This document shows, piece by piece, positions 11,988 through 27,906 of a DNA stretch of 64,000 nucleotides. Below the pieces are notes generated by a model. That model searched no databases. It was given only the letters and a program-made list of their open reading frames with translations, and had not been told where the DNA came from. The stretch comes from Escherichia coli (GTDB lineage Bacteria > Pseudomonadota > Gammaproteobacteria > Enterobacterales > Enterobacteriaceae), in assembly GCF_003991155.1 (NCBI RefSeq), contig NZ_CP031293.1; one strand, 5' to 3'. The translations under genes and the position numbers were made by a program. The first letter of the stretch is position 1; each line of letters starts with the position of its first letter.

Positions 11988-12932
11988 ATGAGTCCTGATA
12001 ATATCGGTTCGGCTGTCAATCGCTTCTCAGGTTGGCCATCTAATGATCCTCTAAAAACAGATAACGAATCAATGACATCACCCGTGACTGTGCAGGTAAT
12101 AAAGATGATTGCCGCCATCCTTGACCCATATCGGATAGTCGTTGGAATCGATACACTTTATACAACGCAGCGCGAAACATTTACCTCAGAGAGTCAACAG
12201 CTCATTGAATCAGCATTGCAAACACTTCATGTGATAAATTTAAATAACCTGGAAACAAATCTCGATGAGGACGGTCACTATCTGGCTTTTGGATATAACG
12301 TTGACACTCCTGACAGAATAACCGTTTCTGCTTATAATGAAAAAAAGCCTGGCTGCTATGGCCAATGTCTTTTAATACAGGATGACGAAACAGACTTATT
12401 TAACCTGATAAAAGTTAAAATTTTTGAAGCCAGGCATAATTATGTCGCTCAATTGATGAGCGATCCGGAATTTATGTTCAAATTTAGTTATAGCGCTCAA
12501 CAAAATAGATTAGAACCTCATCTTCTGGTTCCCACTTATTTCCCTCTAAAAACAAACGAACCGGTTACGCAAGAGGATGTACTGTTACTTTATCGTTTCT
12601 TTAAAATGGATGGTGATTTTAATATATTAACATCAGATGAATACATGAGTATCATGACACCTCTGATGAAGTGTGAGCGCAGCATCCACGACCACAACAG
12701 GTATGTGACGGGCAAAGATACCCTTCTTCTGGACTATCCTCCTTCTGGTAACCAGATATATTTCCATATTTTTCCTGACGAATCAGCAACACTAGTCCTT
12801 TATTTTTCAAACAATGACATTGAATGTTTCGTCTTTGAAAGAGATATTCCGAGCCAGTATCGCTTTTTCAAAATGTTTACCAATCTGGCACTGGTTATTG
12901 ATCAGTTAACCGATGCCAATCAAATACTTTAA
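11988..12932 (+). CDS. Hypothetical protein, 314 aa, no recognisable family; AT-rich gene with Ser/Thr/Pro/Asn-rich N-terminus
   Basis: Uninterrupted 945-nt ORF with an AGG-type SD about 9 nt upstream; visibly lower GC than the flanking cyd and glm genes; no TM segments or known motifs detected by eye. Confidence 0.55.
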   Translation: MSPDNIGSAVNRFSGWPSNDPLKTDNESMTSPVTVQVIKMIAAILDPYRIVVGIDTLYTTQRETFTSESQQLIESALQTLHVINLNNLETNLDEDGHYLAFGYNVDTPDRITVSAYNEKKPGCYGQCLLIQDDETDLFNLIKVKIFEARHNYVAQLMSDPEFMFKFSYSAQQNRLEPHLLVPTYFPLKTNEPVTQEDVLLLYRFFKMDGDFNILTSDEYMSIMTPLMKCERSIHDHNRYVTGKDTLLLDYPPSGNQIYFHIFPDESATLVLYFSNNDIECFVFERDIPSQYRFFKMFTNLALVIDQLTDANQIL

Positions 12933-13012
12933 TTTTTATATATTCCCTGTGGCAAATATTGCTAAACAATGCCCGGGGATTAATTTTTATTACTCACGGA
13001 AAGATTTAAATA

Positions 13013-13435
13013 ATGATCCCATCTCAAATCTCTTTCAACACCCTTCCTGTCAATGCAACATACGCTTCAGAGACAACAGTTGACACACAAAAATTCTCTG
13101 ACATCCTCTACTCAGCGGGGTGTTCCCTAAAGGATCTGGCTTATCTGAGCAGATGTCTGGCATCAATACATCCGACTATCGCCAAAAACATTTATGAAAC
13201 AGAAAATCTCAGCGATCAAAAATTACTACATATTGATTGCCGTAGTACAAATGAAATCAAGATAAATATCTTTTTTGGTCAACAACGAGAAGGATTAATT
13301 GAAATTAATTCTGACACTGTCATTTTTTCGATATTGTCTTCATTAATTGACTCCGCCATTTCTAAATTTCAACACCAAATCCCCGTTAACGGTTCAGTTA
13401 ATCGTGAACTATTGTATGAGGATTATACTGATTAA
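13013..13435 (+). CDS. Hypothetical protein, 140 aa, no recognisable family; second gene of the AT-rich module
   Basis: 423-nt ORF 80 nt downstream of the 314-aa ORF, same strand and same AT-rich composition; no known motifs detected by eye. Confidence 0.5.
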   Translation: MIPSQISFNTLPVNATYASETTVDTQKFSDILYSAGCSLKDLAYLSRCLASIHPTIAKNIYETENLSDQKLLHIDCRSTNEIKINIFFGQQREGLIEINSDTVIFSILSSLIDSAISKFQHQIPVNGSVNRELLYEDYTD

Positions 13436-13981
13436 ATCCACCCAGTCGCGAAAATGGCCTGCGTTATTGCCAGAGGTAATAAAACCTTTGATTAACGTTA
13501 CTCATACTGGTAGCACCTTCATGTACCTCTCTTTTTTACGAAAAATCAAAAGAGCTAACTAAGGTCATAATTCGCATGAATCATTAACCATTTGTTATTT
13601 TCAACATTATTTTTACATTAAGCAGAGATGAATTGCAGTGAAATTCGACTTAAATTTTATGAAATGCATTTACTCATGGCTAAACCCATATCACTAAAAT
13701 GCAAATTAGAAGTAGATCACAAATACCTCAATACACCAAATCAAGTTAATTTTAAAAATTTAACATTCATGACATTAGTTGACATAACACACTGAATTAA
13801 CATGAGAATTTAACAACATACTTTAAACAATCATTTCCCGAAAGACATTTTGAAAATAGATCAATTGCAACATTACGGTCAGATAAAGACACTCCTGTGA
13901 TATTAAACCTGTGCCGTTATGAACGGCCATAAATACGACGTGTGTAACTTATTTTACTCTCTGTCTTACAAAGGATTACCC

Positions 13982-14431
13982 ATGAAGAAAGCAACACTTG
14001 TGATTGGCGTTATTGGCGCGGACTGCCATGCAGTAGGCAATAAAGTTCTGGACCGCGTTTTTAGCAACCATGGCTTCAGAGTCATTAATCTGGGCGTAAT
14101 GGTCAGCCAGGACGAATATATTGATGCGGCCATTGAAACTGGCGCTGACGCGATTGTCGTCTCCTCTATCTATGGGCATGGCGATATCGACTGTCTGGGC
14201 ATGCGCGAACGCTGCATCGAGCGTGGACTGGGGGACATCCTGCTCTATGTGGGCGGTAACCTGGTGGTCGGAAAACATGACTTCGCTGACGTGGAAACCA
14301 AATTCAAAGAGATGGGATTTGATCGCGTCTTTGCCCCAAGTCATGACTTAGAAGATGTTTGTCAGCTGATGGCACACGATATCAACCAACGTCATGACGT
14401 TGATACTCGTATTCTTGAAGAGGCAATCTGA
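13982..14431 (+). CDS. glmS: Glutamate mutase sigma subunit (B12-binding, GlmS/MutS/MamA)
   Basis: ORF-track frame begins 13919; start set to [21 protein letters not shown] (AGGA SD 6 nt upstream). Strong resemblance to the Clostridium cochlearium GlmS B12-binding subunit (DxHxxG-type motif ...[10 protein letters not shown]...). Confidence 0.9.
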
Positions 14432-15819
14432 TGCAAATCGTCTCTGTCGATATTGGATCGACGTGGACCAAAGCAGCCCTCTTCGCCCGGGAGGGGGATG
14501 CGTTAACGTTGGTTAACCACGTACTGACCCCAACCACCACCCATCATCTGGCGAAGGGGTTTTTCTCCAGCCTGAACCTGGTGTTAAACGTAGATAATGC
14601 CCTCCCCCTGTTTAACAACGGTGAGGTTGCATTGAAGTATTCCTCCTCTGCCAAAGGTGGGCTGGCGGTTGCCGCAATGGGATTGGTGCCTTCTATCACC
14701 CTGGAAACCGCGAAAGTAACCGCTCACTCTGCGGGGGCTAAAATTGCGCAATATTACGCCTACAAGCTGAACCGCCGTGATATCCAGGCACTGGAAGAAA
14801 CGCAGCCCGATATTCTCTTGTTCACCGGCGGCACCGACGGCGGAGAAGAAAGCTACGGCCTGAATAACGCCCGTGTGCTGGCAGAATCCAAACTCGACTG
14901 CGCCATTATTTATGCCGGAAACCGGGATATTCAGGACGAGGTGCAGGAGATCCTAGGGCATAAAGACCTGACCATCGTCGACAACGTTCTGCCCGATCTT
15001 GACCATCCGAACCCTTTAGCTGCACGCCAGGCTATCTGCGACATATTCCTTAAACGCATCGTTAAAGGGAAAGGGCTGGATGTCGTTGTTGATAAAACAG
15101 GCGAAGAACCAATGCCGACACCGTGGACAGTCTTTGAACTGGTTAAGGCAATCAGTAATGTCGATCACAGCTGGAAAGAGTTCATGCTGATCGACATGGG
15201 TGGCGCAACCACCGATGTCTATTCCGCCTGTGCCAACACGCTCTCGCCCGACACCGTTTTACACGGCGTACCGGAACCCTTCGTGAAACGGACGGTGGAA
15301 GGCGATCTGGGAATGCGCGTCTCGGCAATGGTGGTTGGTGAAAGTGCGAAAGAGTTAGTCAATGTGAATTTTGCTCAGCAACCCGCACAGCTGGACGCTT
15401 TTTATCATTACCTCCGTCATCTAGTCGCTCATCCCGACTACTTACCCGCGAATGCAGAAGAAAAATATTTCGATACCGTCCTGGCCGGACTGTGTGTGGG
15501 TTATGCCACCGAAAGACATGCGGGCACCAAAAAAGAGGTCTGCACCTGCGTCGGCAATGTCGATTTACAGATGGGACGTGACCTGACAACCGTGCGTAAA
15601 GTCGTCGGATCCGGCGGATGGCTCTCGCGTGCCAGTCAGTTCGATATGCATCACTGGTTGAAATACCGCGAGTTAAACGACGACGGTAAACGCATTCTCT
15701 TACCGACCGAATTTGAATATTACCGCGATTCCCGGGGGCTATTACCACTGCTGGCAAACGTCGCCAGAGTCGATCCGCTGGCCGCCGCGCGCACCAGTAT
15801 TCAATGCTTAACCCTATAA
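14431..15819 (+). CDS. glmL: Glutamate mutase-associated protein GlmL/MutL (putative chaperone/reactivase)
   Basis: 462-aa ORF sandwiched between glmS and glmE as in clostridial glutamate mutase operons; ATGA start/stop overlap with glmS. Confidence 0.85.
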   Translation: MQIVSVDIGSTWTKAALFAREGDALTLVNHVLTPTTTHHLAKGFFSSLNLVLNVDNALPLFNNGEVALKYSSSAKGGLAVAAMGLVPSITLETAKVTAHSAGAKIAQYYAYKLNRRDIQALEETQPDILLFTGGTDGGEESYGLNNARVLAESKLDCAIIYAGNRDIQDEVQEILGHKDLTIVDNVLPDLDHPNPLAARQAICDIFLKRIVKGKGLDVVVDKTGEEPMPTPWTVFELVKAISNVDHSWKEFMLIDMGGATTDVYSACANTLSPDTVLHGVPEPFVKRTVEGDLGMRVSAMVVGESAKELVNVNFAQQPAQLDAFYHYLRHLVAHPDYLPANAEEKYFDTVLAGLCVGYATERHAGTKKEVCTCVGNVDLQMGRDLTTVRKVVGSGGWLSRASQFDMHHWLKYRELNDDGKRILLPTEFEYYRDSRGLLPLLANVARVDPLAAARTSIQCLTL

Positions 15820-15837
15820 CAATTAAGGCTGCAATCA

Positions 15838-17283
15838 ATGGAACTTCGAAATAAGAAATTAACCCATGACGAATTCATGACCGAGCGGCAACAGGTACTG
15901 AAAACCTGGGAAACCGGCAAGGATGTTGAAAACTTTGAAGATGGCGTTAAATACCAACAAACCATTCCTGAGCATAAACGCTTCTCTCTTGCCCTGCTGA
16001 AAGCAGACAAGGAAGGTAAAACTCTTAGCCAACCGCGCGCAGGCGTGGCGCTGATGGACGAACACATCGAACTACTGAAAACACTACAAGAAGAGTGCGA
16101 TCTGCTGCCGAGCACCATCGATGCATATACCCGTCTGAATCGGTACGAAGAAGCGGCTGTAGGGATTAAAAAATCCATCGAAGCCGGAACCTCTAAACTG
16201 AACGGTTTACCGGTCGTTAACCACGGCGTCGCAGCTTGCCGTCGCCTCACCGAAACTCTGCAAAAACCGCTACAGATCCGCCACGGCACGCCAGATGCGC
16301 GTCTGCTGGCTGAAATCTCGATGGCCAGCGGCTTTACCAGTTATGAAGGCGGCGGCATTTCCTACAATATTCCGTATGCCAAGCGCGTAACGCTGGAAAA
16401 ATCGATCCGCGACTGGCAGTACTGCGACCGTTTAATGGGGATGTATGAAGAACACGGGATCCGCATCAACCGCGAACCGTTTGGCCCACTAACGGGTACC
16501 CTGATCCCGCCGTTTATCTCGCACTCTATCGCGATAATCGAAGGCTTGCTGGCGCTGGAACAGGGTGTGAAATCTATCACCGTTGGTTATGGACAGGTCG
16601 GCAGCCTGACGCAGGATGTTGCGGCGATCCAGTCTCTGCGTGAACTTGCACACGAATATTTTCAGAGCTATGGCTATACCGACTATGAATTAAGTACCGT
16701 GTTTCACCAGTGGATGGGCGGCTTTCCGGAAGACGAATCGAAAGCGTTCGCTATTATCTCCTGGGGCGCAGCCGTCGCGGGGATGTCTGGTGCCACCAAA
16801 GTCATCACCAAAAGTCCGCACGAAGCCTGGGGCATCCCGACTGCCGCTGCCAACATTCAGGGGCTGAAAGCCTCCCGCCAGATGCTCAACATGGTCAACG
16901 AGCAGAAATTCCCGCCGTGCCCTGCGGTTGAACTGGAAATTGAACTGATTAAGAGCGAGGTTCGCGCGGTACTGAATAAAGTGTTCGAACTGGGTAATGG
17001 TGATATTGCGCGCGGTACGGTGCTGGCATTTGAAGCGGGCGTACTGGATGTGCCGTTTGCGCCAGCCGCCTGCAACGCGGGCAAAATTCTTCCGGTCCGT
17101 GACAACACCGGCGCGATACGCGTACTGGAAGCCGGAGCCGTTCCATTGCCAAAAGATATTCTCGACCTCCACCACGATTACGTTGCGGAACGCGCACGCT
17201 TTGAAGGACGCCAACCGACATTCCAGATGGTTGTAGATGACATCAATGCTGTATCCCACAGTAAATTAATAGGAAGACCATAA
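15838..17283 (+). CDS. glmE: Glutamate mutase epsilon (catalytic) subunit
   Basis: 481-aa ORF collinear with clostridial GlmE (MELRNKK..., ...SQPRAGVALMDEHIELL..., ...FHQWMGGFPEDESKAF..., ...FQMVVDDINAV...). Confidence 0.9.
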   Translation: MELRNKKLTHDEFMTERQQVLKTWETGKDVENFEDGVKYQQTIPEHKRFSLALLKADKEGKTLSQPRAGVALMDEHIELLKTLQEECDLLPSTIDAYTRLNRYEEAAVGIKKSIEAGTSKLNGLPVVNHGVAACRRLTETLQKPLQIRHGTPDARLLAEISMASGFTSYEGGGISYNIPYAKRVTLEKSIRDWQYCDRLMGMYEEHGIRINREPFGPLTGTLIPPFISHSIAIIEGLLALEQGVKSITVGYGQVGSLTQDVAAIQSLRELAHEYFQSYGYTDYELSTVFHQWMGGFPEDESKAFAIISWGAAVAGMSGATKVITKSPHEAWGIPTAAANIQGLKASRQMLNMVNEQKFPPCPAVELEIELIKSEVRAVLNKVFELGNGDIARGTVLAFEAGVLDVPFAPAACNAGKILPVRDNTGAIRVLEAGAVPLPKDILDLHHDYVAERARFEGRQPTFQMVVDDINAVSHSKLIGRP

Positions 17284-18524
17284 TGAAAATAAAACAGGCT
17301 CTGTTCACCGCTGGCTACTCCTCATTCTATTTCGATGACCAGCAGGCGATAAAAAACGGAGCGGGTCATGACGGCTTTTTTTATACCGGGGAGCCGGTAA
17401 CACAGGGGTTTAACGCCGTTCGTCAGGCCGGGGAGTGCGTATCAGTACAGTTGATTCTGGAAAACGGCTCGGTCGCCGTAGGTGACTGTGCTGCCGTACA
17501 GTATTCCGGGGCAGGTGGTCGCGATCCACTGTTCCTCGCTGAGCACTTTATTCCGTTCCTCAACGACCATATCAAGCCATTACTGGTAGGCCGCGATGTG
17601 GATGCTTTCCTGCCGAATGCCCGTTTCTTCGACAAATTGCGTATTGACGGCAACTTGCTGCATACCGCCGTGCGCTACGGATTATCACAGGCGCTGCTTG
17701 ATGCTACCGCGCTGGCAACCGGCCGTCTGAAAACTGAAGTAGTTTGCGATGAATGGCAGTTGCCACGCGTGGCGGAATCCATTCCATTATTTGGTCAGAG
17801 CGGGGACGATCGATATATCGCCGTCGATAAGATGATCCTTAAGGGCATCGACGTGCTGCCCCATGCACTGATTAATAACGTCGAAGAGAAACTGGGCTTT
17901 AAAGGTGAAAAACTGCGCGAATATGTCCGCTGGCTGTCGGATCGTATTCTGAGCAAGCGCACCAGCGCACGCTACCACCCTACCCTGCACATCGATGTAT
18001 ACGGCACTATCGGTCTGATCTTCGATATGGATCCGCTTCGCTGTGCGCAATACATCGCCAGCCTGGAAAAAGAAGCGCAAGGCCTGCCGCTCTACATTGA
18101 AGGGCCGGTCGATGCCGGTAACAAGCCCGATCAAATTCGCCTGCTGACCGCGATTACCAAAGAGCTGACGCGCCTCGGTTCCGGCGTGAAAATTGTGGCC
18201 GATGAATGGTGTAACACCTACCAGGATATTGTTGATTTCACTGATGCCGCCAGTTGTCACATGGTGCAAATCAAAACCCCGGATCTGGGCAGTATTCACA
18301 ACATCGTCGATGCGGTTCTTTACTGCAACAGCCACAGCATGGAAGCGTACCAGGGCGGCACCTGCAATGAAACTGATGTCAGTGCCCGCACCTGTGTCCA
18401 CGTCGCCCTTGCCGCTCGCCCTATGCGTATGCTGGTAAAGCCAGGGATGGGCTTTGACGAAGGCCTCGATATCGTCTTCAACGAAATGAATCGTACTATC
18501 GCGCTGTTGCAGGCTAAGGATTAA
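17283..18524 (+). CDS. mal: 3-Methylaspartate ammonia-lyase (beta-methylaspartase)
   Basis: 413-aa ORF highly similar by recall to the Clostridium tetanomorphum enzyme (MKI...FYFDDQ.AIK.GAGHDGF.YTG..., ...HMVQIKTPDLG..., ...CNET...); ATGA overlap with glmE. Confidence 0.9.
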   Translation: MKIKQALFTAGYSSFYFDDQQAIKNGAGHDGFFYTGEPVTQGFNAVRQAGECVSVQLILENGSVAVGDCAAVQYSGAGGRDPLFLAEHFIPFLNDHIKPLLVGRDVDAFLPNARFFDKLRIDGNLLHTAVRYGLSQALLDATALATGRLKTEVVCDEWQLPRVAESIPLFGQSGDDRYIAVDKMILKGIDVLPHALINNVEEKLGFKGEKLREYVRWLSDRILSKRTSARYHPTLHIDVYGTIGLIFDMDPLRCAQYIASLEKEAQGLPLYIEGPVDAGNKPDQIRLLTAITKELTRLGSGVKIVADEWCNTYQDIVDFTDAASCHMVQIKTPDLGSIHNIVDAVLYCNSHSMEAYQGGTCNETDVSARTCVHVALAARPMRMLVKPGMGFDEGLDIVFNEMNRTIALLQAKD

Positions 18525-18527
18525 CAA

Positions 18528-19898
18528 ATGGCTCGTTCTTTTAAAGTCTTATCGCCAACGGCAATCCTCGGGTATGGATTCCCGGAAGAGAGCTTCCGCA
18601 AAGCGATGGCAGAATCGCCCGATCTGATCGCCGTTGATGCAGGCTCTTCCGATCCTGGCCCCCACTACCTCGGAGCGGGCAAACCGTTTACCGATCGCGC
18701 AGGGGTCAAGCGCGATCTGCGCTATATGATCACCGCAGGCGTGCAAAATAATATACCGGTGGTGATCGGAACAGCTGGCGGTTCTGGTGCCGCACCACAC
18801 CTGGAGTGGTGCCGAGAAATAATTCATGAGATTGCCCGGGAAGAGCGACTCGTGTTCTCGATGGCGCTGATCCCGGCAGACGTTGACAAAGCCATCGTCC
18901 ACCAGGCGCTGGATAACGGCAAAATCACGGCGCTGGATTTTGTCCCGCCGTTAACCCACGACGCGATTGACGAAAGTACGTATATCGTTGCGCAAATGGG
19001 CATCGAACCCTTCCAGCGGGCGCTGAAAGAAGGCGCGCAAGTGGTGCTGGGCGGGCGCGCTTACGACCCGGCCTGCTTTGCTGCGCTCCCGATCATGCAA
19101 GGCTTTGATGAAGGTCTGGCGCTGCATTGTGGGAAAATCCTTGAATGCGCGGCAATCGCCGCAACGCCCGGCTCAGGCTCTGACTGTGCGATGGGCATCA
19201 TTGATGACAACGGCTTTACGCTGAAGACATTTAATCCGAAGCGTAAATTTACCGAAACGTCAGCGGCTGCACACACACTGTATGAGAAATCCGATCCCTA
19301 CTTCCTGCCTGGACCTGGCGGCGTGTTGAACCTGAAAGGCTGCACATTTAAAGCGGTCAATGACGGCGAAGTGTACGTCAGCGGTTCTAAGCATGAAGAA
19401 ACGCCGTATGCCCTGAAACTGGAAGGTGCGCGACGGGTGGGCTTCCGCTGTCTGACCATCGCAGGAACGCGCGACCCGATCATGATCGCCGGGATCGATA
19501 AAATCATCGATGAAGTCAAAACCAGCGTTTCACGTAACCTGTCGCTCGACGATGACAGCATTCGCATCAATTTCCACCTGTACGGCAAAAACGGGGTGAT
19601 GGGCGACCATGAACCGATGCAAACTGCCGGGCATGAGCTGGGGATTGTCCTTGATGTAGTTGCACCGACCCAGGAAATTGCCAATAGCGTTTGCTCGCTG
19701 GTGCGCTCTACCATGCTGCACTACGGCTATGAAAACCGCATCGCTACCGCAGGCAATCTGGCGTTCCCGTTCTCCCCTTCTGATATCCAGGGCGGGCCGG
19801 TATACGAATTTTCCATATATCACCTGATTGAAGCCAACGACGCTCTGCGTTTTGATTTCCATATTGAACAGGTGACGCCAGAAGGAGTTCAGGCATGA
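18528..19898 (+). CDS. Conserved hypothetical protein, 456 aa; family not confidently assigned (size and pairing reminiscent of AtuA-like DUF1446 proteins)
   Basis: ORF starting 3 nt after the mal stop with an AAGGA SD; no cofactor motif recognised by eye. The DUF1446 suggestion is from memory of domain architecture, not from alignment. Confidence 0.7.
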   Translation: MARSFKVLSPTAILGYGFPEESFRKAMAESPDLIAVDAGSSDPGPHYLGAGKPFTDRAGVKRDLRYMITAGVQNNIPVVIGTAGGSGAAPHLEWCREIIHEIAREERLVFSMALIPADVDKAIVHQALDNGKITALDFVPPLTHDAIDESTYIVAQMGIEPFQRALKEGAQVVLGGRAYDPACFAALPIMQGFDEGLALHCGKILECAAIAATPGSGSDCAMGIIDDNGFTLKTFNPKRKFTETSAAAHTLYEKSDPYFLPGPGGVLNLKGCTFKAVNDGEVYVSGSKHEETPYALKLEGARRVGFRCLTIAGTRDPIMIAGIDKIIDEVKTSVSRNLSLDDDSIRINFHLYGKNGVMGDHEPMQTAGHELGIVLDVVAPTQEIANSVCSLVRSTMLHYGYENRIATAGNLAFPFSPSDIQGGPVYEFSIYHLIEANDALRFDFHIEQVTPEGVQA

Positions 19899-20212
19899 AA
19901 CAGTCAATTGTCTCACTGGCGCAAGTCATTCGTTCGAAAAATGCCGGACCTTACGAACTGGTTTTAGATATTTTATTTAAAACGAAAGAAAACTATGAGC
20001 GAGTTAAATCATCAGGGCAATTAACCCCAGAACTGATTGCGCGCTTATATCATGTTGAACCTGACTTTATTCACCGTATTGTCTGGTTTGATCCTTCTAA
20101 CGCAGTAAAAATCGTCATGCCACGAGATATTATCTCCGGGAATGTAGGTGACAATGATGTCTATGGTGCACAGCAACATGCACCTTTATTAAATATGAGT
20201 TTCGATTTGTAA
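19895..20212 (+). CDS. Conserved hypothetical small protein, 105 aa (possible DUF4387-like partner of the preceding gene)
   Basis: ORF whose ATG overlaps the stop of the 456-aa gene (ATGA), implying translational coupling; no motifs recognised by eye. Confidence 0.6.
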   Translation: MKQSIVSLAQVIRSKNAGPYELVLDILFKTKENYERVKSSGQLTPELIARLYHVEPDFIHRIVWFDPSNAVKIVMPRDIISGNVGDNDVYGAQQHAPLLNMSFDL

Positions 20213-20295
20213 AAATCCGAATACTTTTAGCCAACTGACATCCCGTCACTTATTGCAGTTCAACACTTCAGCTATTTGTAAGGTTGTAATAGCAG

Positions 20296-20327
20296 GTAGA
20301 TGCCTGAATCTCTATTCAGGCATCTAC
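20296..20327 (+). other. Perfect 14-bp inverted repeat (gtagatgcctgaat-ctct-attcaggcatctac) in the 160-nt gap before the transporter gene; intra-operon terminator/attenuator or operator candidate
   Basis: Seen directly; followed by a T-rich tract (ttctcctgattctgattt). Confidence 0.4.
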
Positions 20328-20372
20328 TTCTCCTGATTCTGATTTATCGCCGTGCACCTGATGGAGGAAAAA

Positions 20373-21653
20373 ATGAAGAAAATAAGTTTAACCACGATGA
20401 TTCTTTTGGCGCTGGTACTTGGAATGATTATCGGCGTAGTGCTCAATAACACTGCTTCACCGGAAACCGCAAAACTCTATGCGCAAGAAATATCGATATT
20501 CACGACGATTTTCTTACGACTGATAAAAATGATTATCGCTCCGTTAGTGGTCTCTACCCTGGTGGTAGGTATAGCTAAAATGGGAGATGCCAAAGCCCTT
20601 GGTCGTATTTTTTCTAAAACACTCTTTTTATTTATTTGCGCCTCATTGCTGTCAATTGCCTTAGGCTTGATAACGGTAAATTTCTTCATGCCAGGCACAG
20701 GAATTAATTTTGTTGCACACGGTGCCGAAACCACCGGAGTGGTCGCGTCAGAACCCTTTACACTAAAAGTATTTATTTCGCATGCTTTCCCCACCAGCAT
20801 TGTCGATGCCATGGCACACAATGAAATTTTGCAAATCGTGGTGTTCTCAATTTTCCTCGGCTGTAGCCTGACGGCGATTGGTGAGAAAGGCAGCGCCATC
20901 GTTCACGCCTTAGATTCGCTGGCACATGCCATGTTAAAGCTCACTGGCTACGTCATGCTCTTCGCTCCCCTGACCGTATTCGCCGCTATTTCAGCATTGA
21001 TTGCTGAACGAGGACTGGCAGTTATGGTGAGCGCCGGGATCTTTATGGGTGAATTTTATTTCACCATGTTGTTACTTTGGGTGCTGCTTATCGGTCTGGC
21101 CATCGTTTATGTCGGCCCCTGCATCAGACGCCTGACCCGTGCCCTTTCGGAACCCGCCCTGCTGGCATTTACCACATCCAGTTCTGAAGCGGCTTTTCCG
21201 GGAACGCTTGAAAAACTGGAGCAATTTGGCGTTTCCCCCAAAATTGCCAGCTTTGTCTTACCCATTGGCTACTCATTTAATCTCGTTGGATCAATGGCCT
21301 ACTGCTCCTTCGCCACAGTTTTCATCGCCCAGGCCTGCAATATCCATTTATCCATCGGTGAGCAAATCACCATGCTGTTGATCCTGATGTTGACCTCGAA
21401 AGGAATGGCTGGCGTACCACGCGCCTCAATGGTGGTTATCGCCGCCACGCTCAACCAGTTCAATATTCCGGAAGCGGGGCTGATCTTGCTGATGGGCGTT
21501 GATCCGTTCCTTGATATGGGGCGTTCCGCGACAAACGTCATGAGCAACGCAATGGGCGCTGCGATGGTGAGTCGGTGGGAAGGCGAACATTTCGGCGAGG
21601 GCTGTCGGGGTAAAGCATTAAAACCCAATGAATCGAACGTTGCTCTGCCCTGA
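20373..21653 (+). CDS. Dicarboxylate/amino acid:cation symporter (DAACS family, GltP/GltT-like); putative glutamate or C4/C5-dicarboxylate uptake
   Basis: ORF-track frame begins 20352; start set to MKKISLTT with a GGAGG SD. Multi-TM protein with the family-typical layout; family call by overall resemblance to GltP/DctA-type carriers. Confidence 0.8.
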   Translation: MKKISLTTMILLALVLGMIIGVVLNNTASPETAKLYAQEISIFTTIFLRLIKMIIAPLVVSTLVVGIAKMGDAKALGRIFSKTLFLFICASLLSIALGLITVNFFMPGTGINFVAHGAETTGVVASEPFTLKVFISHAFPTSIVDAMAHNEILQIVVFSIFLGCSLTAIGEKGSAIVHALDSLAHAMLKLTGYVMLFAPLTVFAAISALIAERGLAVMVSAGIFMGEFYFTMLLLWVLLIGLAIVYVGPCIRRLTRALSEPALLAFTTSSSEAAFPGTLEKLEQFGVSPKIASFVLPIGYSFNLVGSMAYCSFATVFIAQACNIHLSIGEQITMLLILMLTSKGMAGVPRASMVVIAATLNQFNIPEAGLILLMGVDPFLDMGRSATNVMSNAMGAAMVSRWEGEHFGEGCRGKALKPNESNVALP

Positions 21654-21760
21654 GGGGGATCTTAAGCAATCAGAAGCCAATGACTACGCATTTTTATAAG
21701 CCGGATCATGAAGTTAGACGGCAATTAAGTAAAACTAACGTTTAAGGTGAAAAGTGAAAT

Positions 21761-23413
21761 ATGTCCAAACCATTTATCTGGCAAGAACCGTTTCTACAAA
21801 ATAAAGACGGTACAGAATATACATTAATTAGCGATCAACATATTACAGTAACGGAATTAGACGGCGAAGAAGTGATAAAAATCGCTCCTGAAGCATTAAC
21901 GCTGCTTGCCCGGCAGGCATTTTATGAAGCCTCTTTTTTCTTACGTTCCGCTCATTTGCAACAGGTCGCCAGCATTCTTAACGATCCGCACGCCAGTAGT
22001 AATGATAAATACGTTGCGTTGCAGTTATTACGTAATGCTGAAGTCTCAGCAAAAGGGGTATTACCCAACTGTCAGGATACCGGCACCGCAACTATTGTTG
22101 CCAGTAAAGGGCAACAGATATGGACCGGAGGTAACGACGCTGAAGCCTTAAGCAAAGGCATTTACACCACTTTTCAGGAAAATAATCTGCGCTTTTCACA
22201 AAATGCGCCACTGGATATGTATACCGAAGTCAATACGCAAACCAATCTACCGGCGCAGATTGATATCAGCGCCGTCGCTGGTGATGAGTACCATTTTCTC
22301 TGTATTAATAAAGGGGGCGGCTCTGCCAATAAAGCCGCGCTTTATCAGGAAACCAAATCCCTATTGCAACCAGAAAAACTGACCGCATTTTTAATCGAAA
22401 AAATGAAATCGCTGGGCACCGCTGCCTGCCCGCCTTACCACATCGCCTTTGTCGTCGGAGGGCTTTCAGCCGATCAAACCTTAAAAGTTGCCAAGCTGGC
22501 CTCAACGAAATATTACGACAATTTGCCCACCAGCGGAAACGAGCAAGGACAAGCATTCCGTGATATTGAGCTGGAAAAAGTATTGCTCGAGGCCAGTCAG
22601 CAATTTGGTATTGGTGCGCAATTTGGGGGTAAATATTTCGCTCATGATATTCGCGTCATTCGTCTGCCGCGTCACGGTGGCTCTTGCCCGATAGCTATGG
22701 CGCTCTCCTGTTCTGCGGATCGCAATATCAAAGCAAAAATTAACAAGCACGGTATCTGGCTGGAAAAACTCGAACACAATCCGGGGCAATATATTCCAGC
22801 CTCACTGCGGGAAGAAAATCACGCGCAACATGTACAGCTGGATCTAAACCGTCCGTTGCGTGACGTGATGCAGGATCTCGCCAGATTACCGGTAGGCACC
22901 CGCGTGTCGTTAAGTGGTCCCATCGTAGTGGCGCGCGATATCGCCCACGCCAAAATAAAAGCGCGGCTGGATAGCGGCGAACCGATGCCGGATTACCTGA
23001 AGCATCATATTGTCTATTACGCTGGCCCGGCGAAAACACCGGAGAACATGGCCTGCGGTTCACTGGGTCCAACCACGGGCGGTCGAATGGACGGTTATGT
23101 CGATACCTTCCAGGCGGCTGGCGGCAGTCTGGTGATGTTATCGAAAGGTAACCGCAGCCAGCAGGTCACCGATGCCTGTCACAAACATGGCGGCTTCAAT
23201 CTGGGGAGTATTGGCGGTGCAGCTGCGTTACTGGCGCAAGAATATGTCAAAAGTCTGCGTTGCCTGGAATACCCGGAGCTGGGTATGGAAGCGGTGTGGA
23301 TGATGGAAGTGGAAAATTTACCCGCATTCATCCTGGTAGATGATAAAGGCAATAATTTCTTTAGTCAGTTTGAGCAGCAACACCGCTGCGCCAGTTGCCC
23401 TGCGGGACATTAA
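21761..23413 (+). CDS. fumD: Class I (Fe-S) fumarate hydratase paralogue; probable mesaconase/fumarase FumD of the methylaspartate pathway
   Basis: 550-aa ORF with FumA/FumB-like length and sequence, located in the glm-mal operon. A class I fumarase paralogue encoded with glutamate mutase/methylaspartase in E. coli O157:H7 was reported to act as mesaconase; orthology here is inferred from context. Confidence 0.8.
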
Positions 23414-23422
23414 GGAAAATGA

Positions 23423-24025
23423 ATGGAAGCGCGAATTTCAACTGAACGGCATGTGCAGCGCCAGCAGAAATTGAAGGAACAGGTCGATACGCGCGTCGCG
23501 GCGGCGATAGAGAAAAAAGGGATTTTGATTGTTTTCACCGGCAACGGCAAAGGGAAATCCACTGCCGCGTTTGGTACTGTGACGCGCGCGGTGGGTCATG
23601 GCAAAACGGTGGGGGTTGCGCAGTACATCAAGGGGCAATGGGACAACGGCGAATACAACCTTCTCCAACCGCTGGGGGTTGAGTTTCATATTATGGGAAC
23701 CGGTTTTACCTGGGAGACACAGAACCGGCAAGCGGATATCGACGCGGCGAAAGAGGTCTGGTCGGAAAGCAAACGGATGCTGGCTGACAAGCGTTACGAC
23801 TTAGTGGTGCTTGATGAGCTGACCTATATGCTGGCTTACCATTATCTGGACACCGAAGAAGTGATCGCTTCTCTGCAAAACCGCCCGGCACAACAAAGTG
23901 TCATTGTCACCGGACGCGGTTGCCACAGTCAGATATTAAAAATGGCGGATACGGTCAGCGAAATCCGCCCCGTCAAACATGCTTTTGATAACGGCATTCA
24001 GGCGCAGCCGGGTATCGACTGGTAA
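23423..24025 (+). CDS. Corrinoid adenosyltransferase (CobA/BtuR family, cob(I)alamin adenosyltransferase)
   Basis: 200-aa ORF with P-loop GNGKGKSTAAFG and BtuR/CobA-like length; plausible supplier of adenosylcobalamin for glutamate mutase. Confidence 0.8.
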   Translation: MEARISTERHVQRQQKLKEQVDTRVAAAIEKKGILIVFTGNGKGKSTAAFGTVTRAVGHGKTVGVAQYIKGQWDNGEYNLLQPLGVEFHIMGTGFTWETQNRQADIDAAKEVWSESKRMLADKRYDLVVLDELTYMLAYHYLDTEEVIASLQNRPAQQSVIVTGRGCHSQILKMADTVSEIRPVKHAFDNGIQAQPGIDW

Positions 24026-24028
24026 TAA

Positions 24029-24056
24029 CTGCGCCTGGCATCCCGCCAGGCGCAGG
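24029..24056. terminator. Convergent terminator hairpin (ctgcgcctgg-N8-ccaggcgcag) between the cobA-like and LysR genes
   Basis: 10-bp perfect inverted repeat followed by gtttta on the plus strand; seen directly. Confidence 0.55.
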
Positions 24057-24058
24057 TT

Positions 24059-24964
24059 TTACATCTCCTGCGGTACGACCGATTTCGCCAGCAACCATTC
24101 ACGAAATTGCTGCAAGTGCGGTGAGTCAGACTTCTCTTCCTGCCACGTCATAATAAAACGATTACCGGTACGAATAGGCACATCACAGGGAATCACCATA
24201 TCGCCACTATCCAAATCATGTTGAATAGCGAACCGTGGTAACAGCGCCACGCCGAGATTAGAGCGCACGGCGGCAATCAGCATTGAAAGCAAATCGAAAC
24301 GTGGTCCGTTATTGACCAGCGGACTGCTAACGCCAGATAAAGCAAACCACTCTTCCCAGCCAGTAATACGGGTGCTTTGATGCAGAAGTGGTAACTCAGT
24401 AAGCAGTTCTGCCACTGACAGTTTTTGATCGGACATTGCAAGCAAACTGCCGCTGCATACCGGCAAAATCTCCTCATCAAAGAGATATTCTACTTCCGCC
24501 CAGGGCGCGCAAAAATTTTCGCGCATAATGACAGCATCGTACTCCCGATTAAGAAAATCGCCGTTATTAGCTAAAGAATGAATATTAACAATAATATCGG
24601 GATGTAACTTTGTGAATTCATGTAAATTTGGGATTAACCAGTGGGTACTAAAAGTAGGATTAACGGCAAGTTCAATAACCTGAACCGTAGGCTGCCAGGT
24701 CATAATGGTATTGGTATCGCGTTCCAGCTTATTTAATGTTTCTTTTACTATCCCCAGGTAATACTTCCCTGCATCATTAAGAAAAATGCGTTTTTTAGAG
24801 TGTGAAAATAACGGAGTACGTAAAAATTCCTCCAGCGCACTTACTTGTCTGAATACTGCACTTTGGGTTAACGCTAACTCCTCTGCCGCTCTGGTATAAC
24901 TTTCATGACGTGCGACGACCTCAAAAGTCACCAGCAGTTCCGTTTTAGGTATTTTTCCTCGCAT
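24059..24964 (-). CDS. LysR-family transcriptional regulator
   Basis: 301-aa ORF with N-terminal wHTH (...TFEVVARHESYTRAAEELALTQSAVFRQVSALEE...) and LysR substrate-binding-domain length; AGGGAAGG SD. Confidence 0.85.
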   Translation of the reverse strand: MRGKIPKTELLVTFEVVARHESYTRAAEELALTQSAVFRQVSALEEFLRTPLFSHSKKRIFLNDAGKYYLGIVKETLNKLERDTNTIMTWQPTVQVIELAVNPTFSTHWLIPNLHEFTKLHPDIIVNIHSLANNGDFLNREYDAVIMRENFCAPWAEVEYLFDEEILPVCSGSLLAMSDQKLSVAELLTELPLLHQSTRITGWEEWFALSGVSSPLVNNGPRFDLLSMLIAAVRSNLGVALLPRFAIQHDLDSGDMVIPCDVPIRTGNRFIMTWQEEKSDSPHLQQFREWLLAKSVVPQEM

Positions 24965-25234
24965 AATGCCTTCCCTTAAAAATAGTTGAAACTATCAAAA
25001 AACCATTACTTATTGCTAAGTAATGGCAACCAAAGCAGCAATCAATATTTTATAAAAATCATGTTCGATATTTATAACCTGGTAAGCCTGGCGTGACAAT
25101 TGTCTCAATCAGACAATAATAATCCGAAAAGCAAAACGCCCTTCGGATTATTATGATTCAAGTTAAGTGAAGATTATTAAATTGATAGCAATTATCATAT
25201 CTATGGATATTATGACAAACAATCAACAAAAATT

Positions 25235-26905
25235 TTATTTTTGATTTATAGCATATCCTTCTAAGAATTTTTGCGAAGCTGCAATATCTGGGGTAAAGAC
25301 CCGATCCTGGTCGACAAACGGCACGACTTTTCTGTATTCGGTAAACATTGCTTTGGTGGATTTCCCTAATGCCAGTTGTGGATCGGCCTGCAACCGTAAA
25401 TCGAGAGCCTGTGCGGAATGCATCAGTTCAATGCCATAAATCACGTTCAGATTATCGACAACCTGTTTCAATCTTCTGGCCGCGTGGTCATTATTGGCAC
25501 CGGTATCTTCTATACCTCCGGCAACCGGTTGAATATCGAAAGAAACCGGGTTAGCGAGATCGACATTTTCCGCATGCAGCGCAACAAACGGGATATGTAA
25601 TGAACCGAAGCCATGACCTTTATTACCTGCTGCCGACAGGAAGCGTGACAAACCGGTAAAGTGATCATCTTCAAGATGCAGCGAGCGGCGCATACTGTTA
25701 TGTGAAACATGCACTAACGCCACGGTCAGACGCTGGGTGGCAAGCGCAACCGGTAACGATTCGAAATTCGCCGTCGGGAAGATCCCACCGCTGATTGCCC
25801 CATCTTTAACAAAATATTGCGCGACCTGACTGGAGTCCTGATACGCTTTGTCTGCATTCAGCACGGTTGCCGGGTTGTCATCGGAACTGTTGATCTGCAC
25901 GGTAATGGTATCTTCAGCATCGCGCAACGCGCGCATTGCCTCAGAAATGGTATACACCGTCGTTCTGAACGATAACGGATCCTGCAATGCACGTTTGTCA
26001 TGCTTATGCCATAAATAAGAACCACTTAACGCATCGCGAATCTCTTTAGCGGAATCAGCCAACTGCGGGAAAGGACGCACGGCGATCGACTGCGGCAGTA
26101 CCGGCGCGACATTGCCATTCAACGCTTCCAGACTCATAGCGAAAACCACCGGGCTGACATTCAGCAACTGACGTGCCGAACGAACAGCTTCGATAGCGTA
26201 GGCTGTCCCGACGCTGTTGTTCGATAAAATCGCCAGCATATCTTTACCCTGCGGTACCAGTGGCTTAAGTCCCACTTTCGCCAGCGCGTCACCACCGCTC
26301 ATTTGCACGCCATTTACTCGGGCTTTCCATTCCCCCATCATCACCAGACCAACGTGCGAAGCGAGCATAATATCCGCTGCGCCGATACTTCCCCGCACCG
26401 GAATTAACGGTGTAACGCCGCGATTAATAAATTCGGCATACAACTCGGCAATATAAGGCTGTGCGCCGGTTTGCCCATGCAGCATGGTATTTAAACGTAA
26501 TACCATTGAAAGGCGTGCCAGATAATCCGGTAACATCGGACCAACGCCCGCAGAATGGGCGCGCAGCGCGGCAGCATTAAATTTTTTCGACGCGTCAATC
26601 ACCTCAGGCGTTAAATTTCCTTTGGCATCAAATATGGGCTGATCTTTATTTAGCCCCACGCCCACGGTTAAGCCATAAACAGGCGTACCTGAATGCGCGG
26701 CAGTCATCACCAGATCATAACTTTTTTCCATGCGCTCCATGGCGTTCGACGCGATTTTGACGCCGTTATCACCTAATGCAATTGACCAGGCCTGGTCAAT
26801 GGAAAGATGTTCGCCATCCAGCGTAATGGTTGATTTCGCCATCGCAATGGAGCAAACGCTCCAGAGCACAACGGTGACAGTGACTCTTCGTATCAATCCT
26901 TTCAT
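25235..26905 (-). CDS. Histidine ammonia-lyase (HAL/PAL) family protein with N-terminal signal peptide and apparently degenerate MIO motif
   Basis: 556-aa ORF. N-terminus MKGLIRRVTVTVVLWSVCSIAMA-KS looks like a Sec signal peptide; the rest aligns by eye with HutH (YGLTVGVG, ...PVRGSIGAADIMLASH...), but the canonical GASGDL (Ala-Ser-Gly MIO precursor) reads GAADIM. Confidence 0.7.
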   Translation of the reverse strand: MKGLIRRVTVTVVLWSVCSIAMAKSTITLDGEHLSIDQAWSIALGDNGVKIASNAMERMEKSYDLVMTAAHSGTPVYGLTVGVGLNKDQPIFDAKGNLTPEVIDASKKFNAAALRAHSAGVGPMLPDYLARLSMVLRLNTMLHGQTGAQPYIAELYAEFINRGVTPLIPVRGSIGAADIMLASHVGLVMMGEWKARVNGVQMSGGDALAKVGLKPLVPQGKDMLAILSNNSVGTAYAIEAVRSARQLLNVSPVVFAMSLEALNGNVAPVLPQSIAVRPFPQLADSAKEIRDALSGSYLWHKHDKRALQDPLSFRTTVYTISEAMRALRDAEDTITVQINSSDDNPATVLNADKAYQDSSQVAQYFVKDGAISGGIFPTANFESLPVALATQRLTVALVHVSHNSMRRSLHLEDDHFTGLSRFLSAAGNKGHGFGSLHIPFVALHAENVDLANPVSFDIQPVAGGIEDTGANNDHAARRLKQVVDNLNVIYGIELMHSAQALDLRLQADPQLALGKSTKAMFTEYRKVVPFVDQDRVFTPDIAASQKFLEGYAINQK

Positions 26906-26955
26906 TGTGTTTCCTTATCATGATGAGTTTAACAACGGGTTACTGCGACAACGTT

Positions 26956-27906
26956 TTAATTTGTTCTATCTGTTTTCCCCCGCCGGACAATACTGGTCAC
27001 CAGGCGAGCGGCAACTTTCGCAGTTAAATTATCGCGGTCCAGGTCCGGGTTAAGTTCGGCAATATCCGCAGCAATCAACTTCTCGCTACCGGCGATTAAA
27101 TTCACAATGGCTTCAGTAATATTTAACGGCACGCCTAACGGTGATGGAGCAGAAACACCGGGCGCCTGATAACCTGGTAAAACATCGAGACAAATCGTTA
27201 AATAAATGGCGTCACAAGCCTGAATATCTGCCGAGAGCGCATTAGCGATCTCATGCAAACCACGTTCAAATTGCAGAGATTCGTCCAGCCAATAACGCAC
27301 ACCGAGACAATCAGCGCGATCAAATAACGCCTGAGTATTGGCAAAACGACTTATTCCCAGCACGCGATAATGAAACGGTTTGCCATGCTGCGCGTTCCAC
27401 TCTTGCATCTGACGAAACGGCGTACCTGAATTGGCTTGTTCCGCCATCCGTAAATCAAAATGCGCGTCAAGGTTCACAATCAGTAACCGCTGAATATCCG
27501 GACGCGACTGCATAATCCCCTGAAATGTTCCCCACGCCACTTCATGACCGCCCCCCAGAACCACCGGTAAACTGCCGCGCGCAATGGCTGTAGATACGTT
27601 AGCCGCCAGACGATTTTGTGCGGATTCCAGCGCGTGGTCCTCGCTTTGTACATCGCCCATATCGAAAATAGCGCCTTCACAGAGCACTGGCATATTTCCC
27701 AACATGCTGCGCAACGCGCCCGGTCCGCCTGCTGCACCCGCTCGCCCATCATTACGTTGCACTCCGTCATCAACGGCAAAACCAATCAGCGTACAACCGC
27801 CGTGGCTTTGTTCACTAAACGGTTGCACATGCTGATGCCAGCGAGTGCTGATGCCGGTTTCCTGCGAGTCAACACGCCCACTCCACGGCAAAAATGTTTG
27901 CTTCAT
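26956..27906 (-). CDS. hutG: Formimidoylglutamase (arginase-family HutG)
   Basis: ORF-track frame extends to 27945; start set to MKQTFLPW, whose ATG overlaps the hutI stop by 1 nt. Arginase-fold motifs (GGGHEVAWG, NLDAHFDLR, DVLPGYQAPGVSAPSPLG) resemble Salmonella/Klebsiella HutG. Confidence 0.85.
   Translation of the reverse strand: MKQTFLPWSGRVDSQETGISTRWHQHVQPFSEQSHGGCTLIGFAVDDGVQRNDGRAGAAGGPGALRSMLGNMPVLCEGAIFDMGDVQSEDHALESAQNRLAANVSTAIARGSLPVVLGGGHEVAWGTFQGIMQSRPDIQRLLIVNLDAHFDLRMAEQANSGTPFRQMQEWNAQHGKPFHYRVLGISRFANTQALFDRADCLGVRYWLDESLQFERGLHEIANALSADIQACDAIYLTICLDVLPGYQAPGVSAPSPLGVPLNITEAIVNLIAGSEKLIAADIAELNPDLDRDNLTAKVAARLVTSIVRRGKTDRTN

Follow-up and report, generated by a model that had tools for sequence, protein, structure and literature searches.

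The perfect inverted repeat that separates the DUF4387 gene from the symporter gene in the methylaspartate island of Escherichia coli encodes, judging by the alignment of orthologous spacers, an RNA stem-loop that is under purifying selection for pairing and is kept by compensatory evolution. The distribution of substitutions in the stem indicates that it was selected as sense-strand RNA and not as a DNA operator. The hairpin is single-copy and not a REP, and it is not a canonical intrinsic terminator. It is tentatively explained as an operon-internal boundary, a stem-loop that would form or stabilise a 3' end, perhaps with weak termination, and so uncouple the two halves of the operon; the mechanism is one that we infer. 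A selected RNA helix between the enzyme block and the transporter/mesaconase/adenosyltransferase block is the first concrete post-transcriptional feature of this cluster.

Locus and Inverted Repeat

The window, the whole 64-kb stretch of E. coli DNA that was analysed, contains the genes and elements listed in Table 1. Of 5426 complete E. coli genomes, 1124 carry the region 19800-20900 at 99-100% identity, examples being O157:H7, O55:H7 and O145:H28; in these genomes it is part of an accessory island that adjoins sucCD, next to sucD. This methylaspartate (glutamate fermentation) island occurs in about one fifth of complete E. coli genomes, O157:H7 among them, and in many opportunistic enterobacteria. 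Neighbouring genes of the cluster overlap or lie 3-18 nt apart, which fits one operon. The gap between the DUF4387 and symporter genes, in which RefSeq annotates nothing, measures 160 nt and is the largest in the gene string; a sequence-only reading of the window had called it the only sizeable one, but the symporter-fumD gap (21654-21760) also reaches 107 nt. The glmS orthologue in RefSeq is a shorter CDS (149 aa), whose start would be at about 13982.

Relatives of DUF4387 were scanned in one genome per species, which yielded 80 loci. The order glmS-glmL-glmE-mal-atuA-DUF4387 was constant from Enterobacterales to Betaproteobacteria and Spirochaetes, whereas the gene content after DUF4387 was variable.

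Table 1. Coordinates of genes and sequence elements in the window.
Feature	Position	Strand	Remarks
glmS	ORF 13919-14431	+	First gene of the cluster
glmL	14431-15819	+	
glmE	15838-17283	+	
Methylaspartate ammonia-lyase (mal)	17283-18524	+	
AtuA-family gene (atuA)	18528-19898	+	
DUF4387 gene (EDL933 Z0890)	19895-20212	+	Pfam DUF4387 2.6e-39; ends the conserved glmS-to-DUF4387 block
Degenerate remnant of helix P0, E. coli	20235..20271	+	CTGA 20235-20238 with TCAG 20268-20271; inner pairs lost
Complete RNA stem-loop (16 pairs, the basal ones G·U and A-U)	20294..20329	+	E. coli orthologue of helix P2
5' arm GTAGATGCCTGAAT	20296..20309	+	Aligns with columns 37-49 of alignment A3, covarying with columns 65-77
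Tetraloop CTCT	20310..20313	+	
3' arm ATTCAGGCATCTAC	20314..20327	+	Perfect complement of 20296-20309
Pyrimidine/U-rich spacer	20328..20347	+	Tandem CTGATT-CTGATT(T) at 20333-20345
Shine-Dalgarno GGAGG and ATG of symporter gene	20363..20375	+	ATGGAG block invariant in 30/30 orthologues
GltP-type dicarboxylate/amino-acid:cation symporter gene	20373-21653	+	Pfam SDF 2e-102; ATG 20373 agrees with RefSeq CDS start
Class I fumarase, FumD/mesaconase (PMC4682846)	21761-23413	+	
cobO	23423-24025	+	
Operon-end terminator	24029-24055		After cobO
LysR-family gene	24059-24964	-	Convergent, far end of the cluster

The perfect 14-bp inverted repeat described earlier at 20296-20327 was confirmed as GTAGATGCCTGAAT-CTCT-ATTCAGGCATCTAC, with arms that are 100% complementary and 4 nt between them, and the pyrimidine-rich tract described 3' of the hairpin was also present (TTCTCCTGATTCTGATTTATCG). 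The hairpin is placed 83 nt past the DUF4387 stop codon and 45 nt ahead of the symporter ATG. No other perfect hairpin-type inverted repeat of at least 14 bp (loop 3-10) occurs in the 64 kb, and shuffling the window 20 times produced none. A 51-nt segment folded at -24.3 kcal/mol (z = -6.2), and none of 200 shuffles was as stable (0/200); G-C pairs make up 6 of the 14 pairs of the core stem. The loop was TTTT in 31 E. coli genomes, CAAT with an opened apex in E. albertii, and 7-10 nt long in Citrobacter and Klebsiella; since it varies both within and between species, its sequence is not constrained. A small ORF starting from an ATG in the left arm (20300) was discarded, being out of frame with the symporter gene and having no ATG there in Citrobacter.

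Copy Number and Known RNA Families

Other copies of the 14-mer in the window, with up to 3 mismatches, occurred at chance level only. A 43-nt query against the 5426 E. coli genomes matched 1123 island-bearing genomes only, at one locus each, the second match per genome being the reverse strand of the palindrome itself. When 1.08 Mb of sequence from related loci (77 sources) was searched with a covariance model, each cluster likewise had one copy, with the E. coli match at window positions 20262-20375 (56 bits, E = 2.5e-12). The single locus per genome, and its restriction to island-bearing genomes, ruled out a REP/BIME or other dispersed repeat. Rfam 15 (4227 families) gave no relevant match to window positions 12000-28000 at E up to 5, or to the Citrobacter spacer at E up to 10.

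Covariation in Orthologous Spacers

A spacer of 134-170 nt precedes the symporter gene in Escherichia, Citrobacter, Klebsiella, Enterobacter, Lelliottia, Pluralibacter, Buttiauxella and Salmonella arizonae/diarizonae. Orthologous spacers were aligned to the E. coli gap through their flanks, which are AAGGTTGTAATAGCAGG with GCGGTTGGTCACAACAGG upstream and the ATGGAG Shine-Dalgarno block downstream. Each of the 29-30 spacers has a hairpin where that of E. coli aligns, but the stem is built of other sequence, for example GGCGTGCGCCTGAGC-(10 nt)-GCTCAGGCGCACGCC, and RNAalifold recovered this helix, termed P2, from the spacer alignment. Across 30 orthologous spacers, 11 of the 13 stem pairs were changed on both sides and 94% of cells paired, compared with 32-44% of cells when the 3' strand was slid by 1-3 columns as a control; the observed covariation values were attained by 0 of 500 shuffles. 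The arms of E. coli and Citrobacter differed at 7 of 15 positions, all of them compensated. Between E. albertii and E. coli, an A-U pair was swapped for G-C at the third stem pair; this compensated G-C allele had no exact match within E. coli and was found in E. albertii only.

Hairpins of unrelated sequence recurred at the end of the DUF4387 block in Yersinia, Hafnia, Morganella, Budvicia, Pseudescherichia, Yokenella, E. fergusonii, E. marmotae and E. whittamii; those of Yokenella and of the three Escherichia species directly follow DUF4387. Two of these species, E. whittamii and E. marmotae, lack the symporter gene and with it the spacer and its hairpin, which links the element to the downstream gene no less than to the upstream one. 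The tract at 20328..20347 of E. coli stands in place of the ACCCTACA block of the other genera. The spacer is also an insertion hot spot: one E. coli strain has IS1 there, and two other genera have ERIC-like elements.

Strand Asymmetry and the LysR-Type Regulator

Non-Watson-Crick cells of the stem, read on the sense strand, comprised 45 G·U in 12 pairs vs. 10 A·C in 5 pairs, and the sense strand folded better than its reverse complement in 26 of 30 sequences. Together with the compensatory changes, the sense-strand G·U pairs show that selection acts on the sense-strand mRNA. Stem alleles were also counted in an E. coli population sample of 1124 records: the perfect stem was carried by 610 records, an A to G allele (20318) that forms U·G on the sense strand only by 316, the A to G (U·G) allele combined with a TTTT loop by 31, an A to G allele giving G·U by 96, and the one A·C allele tested by 17. 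These alleles represent few events; their direction is consistent with the cross-species pattern and may be taken as supporting evidence, not proof.

A palindromic operator, possibly for an adjacent LysR regulator, had been among the functions proposed for the repeat. The LysR gene is not adjacent, being 3.7 kb off and convergent at the far end of the cluster. Residues 1-42 of LysR, which form the helix-turn-helix, were identical in about 30 genomes of E. coli, Citrobacter, Klebsiella and Salmonella. As read from the sequence, a dyad with a 4-nt centre gives even spacings (e.g., T-N12-A), unlike the T-N11-A of a LysR box. No second copy or half-site was found near the glmS and lysR promoters with up to 3 mismatches, and a candidate box upstream of glmS (13848-13868) was far better conserved than the palindrome. 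An identical helix-turn-helix facing a diverged site, the wrong spacing and the lack of related sites lead to rejection of the operator reading.

Structured RNA in the Spacer of Other Genera

From an alignment of the entire spacer in 29 genomes, RNAalifold predicted three helices, P0, P1 and P2, which were found in the spacers of 27 non-Escherichia genomes. Helix P0, soon after the stop codon, has 9 pairs, of which 6 are compensatory, with 53 G·U vs. 3 A·C; 92.6% of its cells pair across alignment A4 (columns 27-35 and 55-63). Helix P1, GGUUGG with CCARCC, was 96% paired, with one-sided changes only. Helix P2, the orthologue of the E. coli hairpin, is nested inside P1 in the non-Escherichia genera, where it is itself flanked by near-invariant single-stranded UCACAACAGG and ACCCUACA. 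The helices are flanked by the near-invariant unpaired blocks TTCATGCGGTTGGTCAC, ACCCTACA and TCCGATGGAG. Covarying helices with conserved unpaired nucleotides, as in a riboswitch-like leader, were thus present in Citrobacter, Klebsiella and Salmonella but not in E. coli. On a reading of alignment A4, CCAUUGG in the 5' strand of P0 and CCGAUGG, which overlaps the Shine-Dalgarno sequence, complement each other, with no covariation by which to judge the pairing. The range of the spacer RNA takes in Citrobacter, Klebsiella, Enterobacter, Salmonella, Buttiauxella and relatives that carry the B12-dependent methylaspartate cluster.

P2 is still paired in E. coli and E. albertii, although both have lost P1 and most of P0 and their flanking blocks have diverged; in E. 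coli, 5 of the 9 P0 pairs can form, only the four outer ones being contiguous, and P2 is the only strong structure remaining in the DUF4387-symporter gap. That the stem is kept paired despite the loss of P0 and P1 suggests that the helix matters on its own. Pseudescherichia has P0 and P1 present and P2 absent. Yersinia, Hafnia, Budvicia and Morganella have a P0-like hairpin with a U-run, and ACCCTAC persists near their Shine-Dalgarno sequence.

Termination and Expression

The hairpin was not called by a consensus terminator scan. A stable stem-loop is present, and a U run (about 5 or more of 8) 3' of the stem is not; the E. coli tail is weakly U-rich, UU being followed by a tract with 10 U in 18 nt. 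The tail score of the E. coli hairpin was 2.4 with a 14-bp stem (tail UUCUCCUG) and 0.87 with a 16-bp stem (tail CUCCUGAUU), compared with 1.99 for the operon-end terminator (24029-24055), 0.13 for the Citrobacter-type tail ACCCTACA, and 4.66 for the Yersinia hairpin of this junction, which has the tail TTTTTTCT, is a canonical terminator and was called by the scan. All 28 non-E. coli orthologous hairpins (28/28) were followed by a C-rich, U-poor sequence, ACCCUACA, with a score of 0.13. With such tails, termination cannot be the conserved function of the helix; set against the operon-end and Yersinia terminators, the E. coli scores make weak termination possible in E. coli.

Promoter scans of the sense strand found none in the spacers of E. 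coli, C. amalonaticus and C. portucalensis, the 45-nt stretch from hairpin to ATG in E. coli included. A GATAAT/AATTAT upstream of GGTTGG in Citrobacter, initially taken as a -10 element, had no support from the scans and has the P0 helix just upstream. The 53 G·U vs. 3 A·C of P0 argue that this region is transcribed from further upstream.

Kronen and Berg (PMC4682846) were unable to find conditions that lead E. coli to express the cluster. In strand-specific RNA-seq of EDL933 (Landstorfer et al., PMC4048457, Table S4), Z0886-Z0895 remained at or below 3 RPKM in eleven conditions, with the exception of Z0890 (DUF4387), which reached 18 RPKM in LB at 15 °C and 12 RPKM on LB-solid; in the same two conditions Z0891 was at 1 RPKM and Z0888 (symporter) at 0, all of these being low counts (PMC4048457). 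With few reads behind them, these values hint that RNA covering DUF4387 accumulates and stops before passing the hairpin. The supplements of two other EDL933 studies, and a full-text search by Z-number, yielded no further expression values for the cluster.

Discussion

The reading of the hairpin as an operon-internal boundary supposes that the palindrome, transcribed as sense-strand RNA within the polycistronic message, forms a stem-loop of 14-16 bp. An endonuclease could cleave the U-rich CUGAUU-CUGAUUU single strand downstream of the stem, and the stem would block 3'-to-5' exonucleases, leaving a protected 3' end for the glmS-glmL-glmE-mal-atuA-DUF4387 segment. The tract at 20328..20347 would act as the endonuclease-accessible single strand or as a weak terminator tail, and intrinsic termination at the stem would be weak at most. 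Messages for the upstream enzymes would be expected to outlast or outnumber the symporter-fumD-cobO segment, with a presumed effect on the expression ratio. As for an intercistronic stabiliser, a stem-loop of the sense transcript lies inside the operon and is maintained by selection (11/13 compensatory pairs, 45 G·U vs. 10 A·C, sense strand the more stable in 26/30). Both RNA-level proposals of the sequence-only reading, an RNase-protected 3' end and a partial terminator or attenuator, therefore fit the conserved sense-strand helix in kind; the mechanism of the former is putative, and a canonical terminator, as a form of the latter, finds no support in the scan or the tail scores. The boundary reading is favoured by the junction itself, at which a constant upstream block meets variable downstream gene content. 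Against it, a 14-16-bp stem with 6 G-C pairs is a modest barrier, and loss of the spacer tracks the absence of the symporter gene in E. whittamii and E. marmotae.

The covariation in sister genera, with P1 nesting, invariant blocks and P0, exceeds what a simple exonuclease barrier needs and points to a regulatory leader. P2 would then be a module of a cis-regulatory leader RNA of the symporter gene, made up of P0, P1, P2 and the single-stranded blocks, of which E. coli would have a reduced version; such a leader would sense a protein, a small RNA or a metabolite and control translation or stability of the symporter-(glsA)-fumD-cobO message. This is possible but rather doubtful. It would account for the three helices in 27 non-Escherichia genomes, with 6/9 (P0) and 11/13 (P2) compensatory pairs and P1 96% paired, for the near-invariant unpaired blocks TTCATGCGGTTGGTCAC, ACCCTACA and TCCGATGGAG, for the persistence of ACCCTAC and of the Shine-Dalgarno block upstream of the symporter gene out to Yersinia and Hafnia, and for the joint loss of spacer and symporter gene in E. 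whittamii and E. marmotae. The complementarity of CCAUUGG and CCGAUGG over the Shine-Dalgarno sequence also favours it, with no covariation to back the pairing, and the lack of an Rfam match would make the motif an undescribed one. It sits less well with a stem still paired in E. coli and E. albertii after P0 and P1 were lost and the flanks diverged, with the one-sided changes in P1, with Pseudescherichia having P0 and P1 yet no P2, and with the spacer having yielded neither a ligand nor a binding protein nor an expression platform. A leader is favoured by the three helices and invariant single strands of the sister genera, and the lone helix surviving in Escherichia argues for a value of its own; the boundary and leader readings are compatible and not mutually exclusive.

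Termination proper would make the hairpin a bona fide intrinsic (Rho-independent) terminator ending a glmS-DUF4387 operon, with symporter-fumD-cobO transcribed mainly from a promoter of their own. The stable stem, the UU and U-rich tract (10 of 18 nt) after it, a 14-bp-stem score of 2.4 that is no worse than the 1.99 of the obvious operon-end terminator, the canonical terminator at the equivalent Yersinia junction and the fall of the RNA-seq signal from Z0890 to Z0888 all speak for it, but the consensus scan did not call the hairpin, the G·U and A-U pairs at the base, if formed, leave only the tail CUCCUGAUU (0.87), all 28 non-E. coli orthologues have the ACCCUACA tail (0.13), and the E. coli gap has no sigma-70-like promoter, either in the 45 nt between hairpin and ATG or elsewhere. 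Such a terminator is quite unlikely. A palindrome with no function, either a relic of a mobile or repetitive element (REP-like) or a chance feature of a decaying island, is very unlikely. The arm starts with GTAG and contains GCCTGA, which is reminiscent of REP sequences. The insertions of IS1 and ERIC-like elements into the spacer, and a cluster that is not detectably expressed in E. coli (PMC4682846), would also suit a functionless palindrome. It is contradicted by the single copy (the 43-nt query occurring only in the 1123 island-bearing genomes, once each plus the reverse strand, and neither the window nor 1.08 Mb of related loci having a further copy) and by compensatory evolution across genera and also between E. 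coli and E. albertii. A palindromic DNA operator for the LysR-type regulator of the cluster, or for another dimeric transcription factor, can be given hardly any credence. A perfect dyad does lie upstream of the symporter gene, in a cluster that includes a LysR-family gene, but its arms differ at 7/15 positions despite an identical helix-turn-helix, its mismatches on the sense strand are overwhelmingly G·T over A·C, a preference not expected of a DNA site, and its 14-4-14 dyad has T-N12-A and not T-N11-A spacing. Nor was a related site (up to 3 mismatches) present by the glmS or lysR promoters, and the better conserved candidate box is the one upstream of glmS. In Betaproteobacteria, lysR is divergent from glmS, and divergence of lysR from its target gene is the classic arrangement for control of that promoter.

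A stem-loop inside an operon is by itself a familiar device. In the sister genera the same junction has a larger conserved structured RNA, and this undescribed P0-P1-P2 spacer could turn out to be new. It is unlikely, though conceivable, that the hairpin of E. coli is what survives, as one helix, of a structured RNA some 150 nt long and not described before, possibly a new cis-regulatory RNA coupling glutamate uptake to the pathway. Such an RNA could be a metabolite-sensing riboswitch or a leader that binds a protein or an sRNA, and competition between P0 and the CCAUUGG/CCGAUGG pairing, which would occlude the Shine-Dalgarno sequence, is a possible switch mechanism. Helix and spacer RNA together provide testable handles on regulation of the methylaspartate pathway. 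For annotation, the lesson is that covariation and G·U strand asymmetry can tell an RNA hairpin from a DNA operator without experiment.

Among known systems, LysR sites (interrupted dyads of T-N11-A) have dyad symmetry in common with the palindrome, and a LysR-family protein is encoded in the cluster; the palindrome differs from them in its spacing symmetry, in a sequence that is unconserved though the helix-turn-helix is identical, in its RNA-type G·U asymmetry and in having no related site at the cluster promoters. The E. coli hairpin shares with intrinsic terminators and leaky attenuators a stem-loop and, after it, a pyrimidine-rich tract starting with UU, and Yersinia has a canonical terminator at the junction; unlike them, it has no contiguous U-tract and failed the scan, and the tails of its orthologues are C-rich and U-poor. 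Structured cis-regulatory 5' leaders of amino-acid transporter genes resemble the Citrobacter, Klebsiella, Salmonella and Enterobacter spacers in having several helices that covary, unpaired blocks that are invariant and a constant spacing from the Shine-Dalgarno sequence. The spacer differs from such leaders in that it matches 0 of 4227 Rfam families, in that one helix is left in E. coli, and in that no ligand, switch or expression platform was found for it.

Intercistronic stem-loops that give segmental stability are exemplified by the REP hairpins of malE-malF in E. coli and the hairpins after pufA in the puf operon of Rhodobacter. The present hairpin differs from the malE-malF REP in being single-copy and locus-specific and not dispersed, and from both systems in that P2 is nested in a larger three-helix structure in sister genera and its own stabilising function is a presumed one. 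As in malE-malF and puf, a stable sense-strand stem-loop with no proper U-tract occupies the one long gap of the operon, where a constant upstream block gives way to a variable downstream one; in one RNA-seq set, at low counts, RNA of the gene just upstream was present and RNA of the downstream gene absent.

Spacer between the DUF4387 and symporter genes

The spacer between the DUF4387 gene and the GltP-type symporter gene was a structured RNA of three helices (P0, P1 and P2, with P2 nested inside P1) in Citrobacter, Klebsiella, Enterobacter, Salmonella arizonae/diarizonae, Buttiauxella, Lelliottia and Pluralibacter, with compensatory changes and invariant unpaired blocks among the aligned loci. 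The three-helix spacer had no Rfam match, and may be an undescribed cis-regulatory RNA. An ACCCTAC(A) motif 3' of the 14-bp hairpin, the E. coli orthologue of P2, was kept from Citrobacter out to Yersinia and Hafnia; E. coli and E. albertii have TCTCCTGA in its place, and C. sedlakii has CTCCTGCT.

Mobile or repeated elements were found within this spacer. With E. coli strain 100416, the left arm of the hairpin was interrupted by an IS1 element, beyond which the match to the window picked up again at 20303; DUF4387 and the upstream portion of the spacer were missing. Two genomes had ERIC-like repeats, about 115-200 nt long, inserted in the spacer. A contig labelled 'MAG: Collinsella sp.' (JAIJJM010000101.1) was 99-100% identical to E. 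coli from mal to cobO, hairpin included, and almost certainly represents E. coli DNA that was binned in error.

Features of the cluster and of related loci (bare coordinates refer to the window; L-numbers are loci of related genomes)
Feature	Position	Details
Conserved box	13848-13868	TTTTGAAAATAGATCAATTGC; ~115-135 nt 5' of glmS
AtuA-family/DUF4387 pair	18528-20212; L062-L086	3' of the methylaspartate ammonia-lyase gene (mal)
Three-helix spacer	L011-L042 (e.g. L016:7316-7494)	aligned to 20210-20378
ACCCTAC(A) motif	aligned to 20330-20337	columns 79-86 of the spacer alignment; 5' of the Shine-Dalgarno sequence
IS1 insertion, E. coli 100416	L002:3249-4010	
ERIC-like insert, C. amalonaticus S646	L018:7440-7580	directly 3' of the hairpin, which is degraded
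ERIC-like insert, K. oxytoca NBRC 105695	L029:7320-7520	directly 3' of the stop codon
Symporter-fumD gap	21654-21760	107 nt; second sizeable intergenic gap
Perfect 13-bp inverted repeat	25116-25154	ATAATAATCCGAA, 13 nt, TTCGGATTATTAT; upstream region of lysR

Candidate regulator site and position of lysR

The box upstream of glmS hardly varied among Escherichia, Citrobacter, Klebsiella, Salmonella, Enterobacter, Buttiauxella and Pseudescherichia, and was retained in part in Yersinia and Morganella. It contained a T-N11-A dyad (TGA-N7-TCA). As a candidate for the LysR site, or an FNR/CRP-type one, at the main promoter of the cluster, the box is much stronger than the hairpin.

The LysR-family gene stood at the head of the cluster, divergent from glmS, in Betaproteobacteria (Azoarcus, Aromatoleum, Paludibacterium; L064, L066, L070-L072), whereas it was at the tail and convergent in Enterobacteriaceae, and this difference in gene order suggests that the regulator gene was relocated. 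A miRNA-like Rfam match overlapping the inverted repeat upstream of lysR was rejected as spurious.

Gene content of the cluster

The order of mal followed by the AtuA-family/DUF4387 pair was shared by Enterobacterales, Betaproteobacteria, Spirochaetes, Verrucomicrobia and Latescibacterota. The pair probably encodes a pathway step still without assigned genes. Among the cluster genes, appreciable RNA-seq signal in EDL933 was seen in DUF4387 (Z0890) only.

The symporter-fumD interval was about 1.0-1.4 kb in most other genera, and E. coli appears to have lost the gene that fills it elsewhere. Glutaminase (GlsA) is named among the Enterobacteriaceae cluster genes (Kronen & Berg, Fig 5 legend, PMC4682846), and its gene may be the occupant of the longer interval in those genera.
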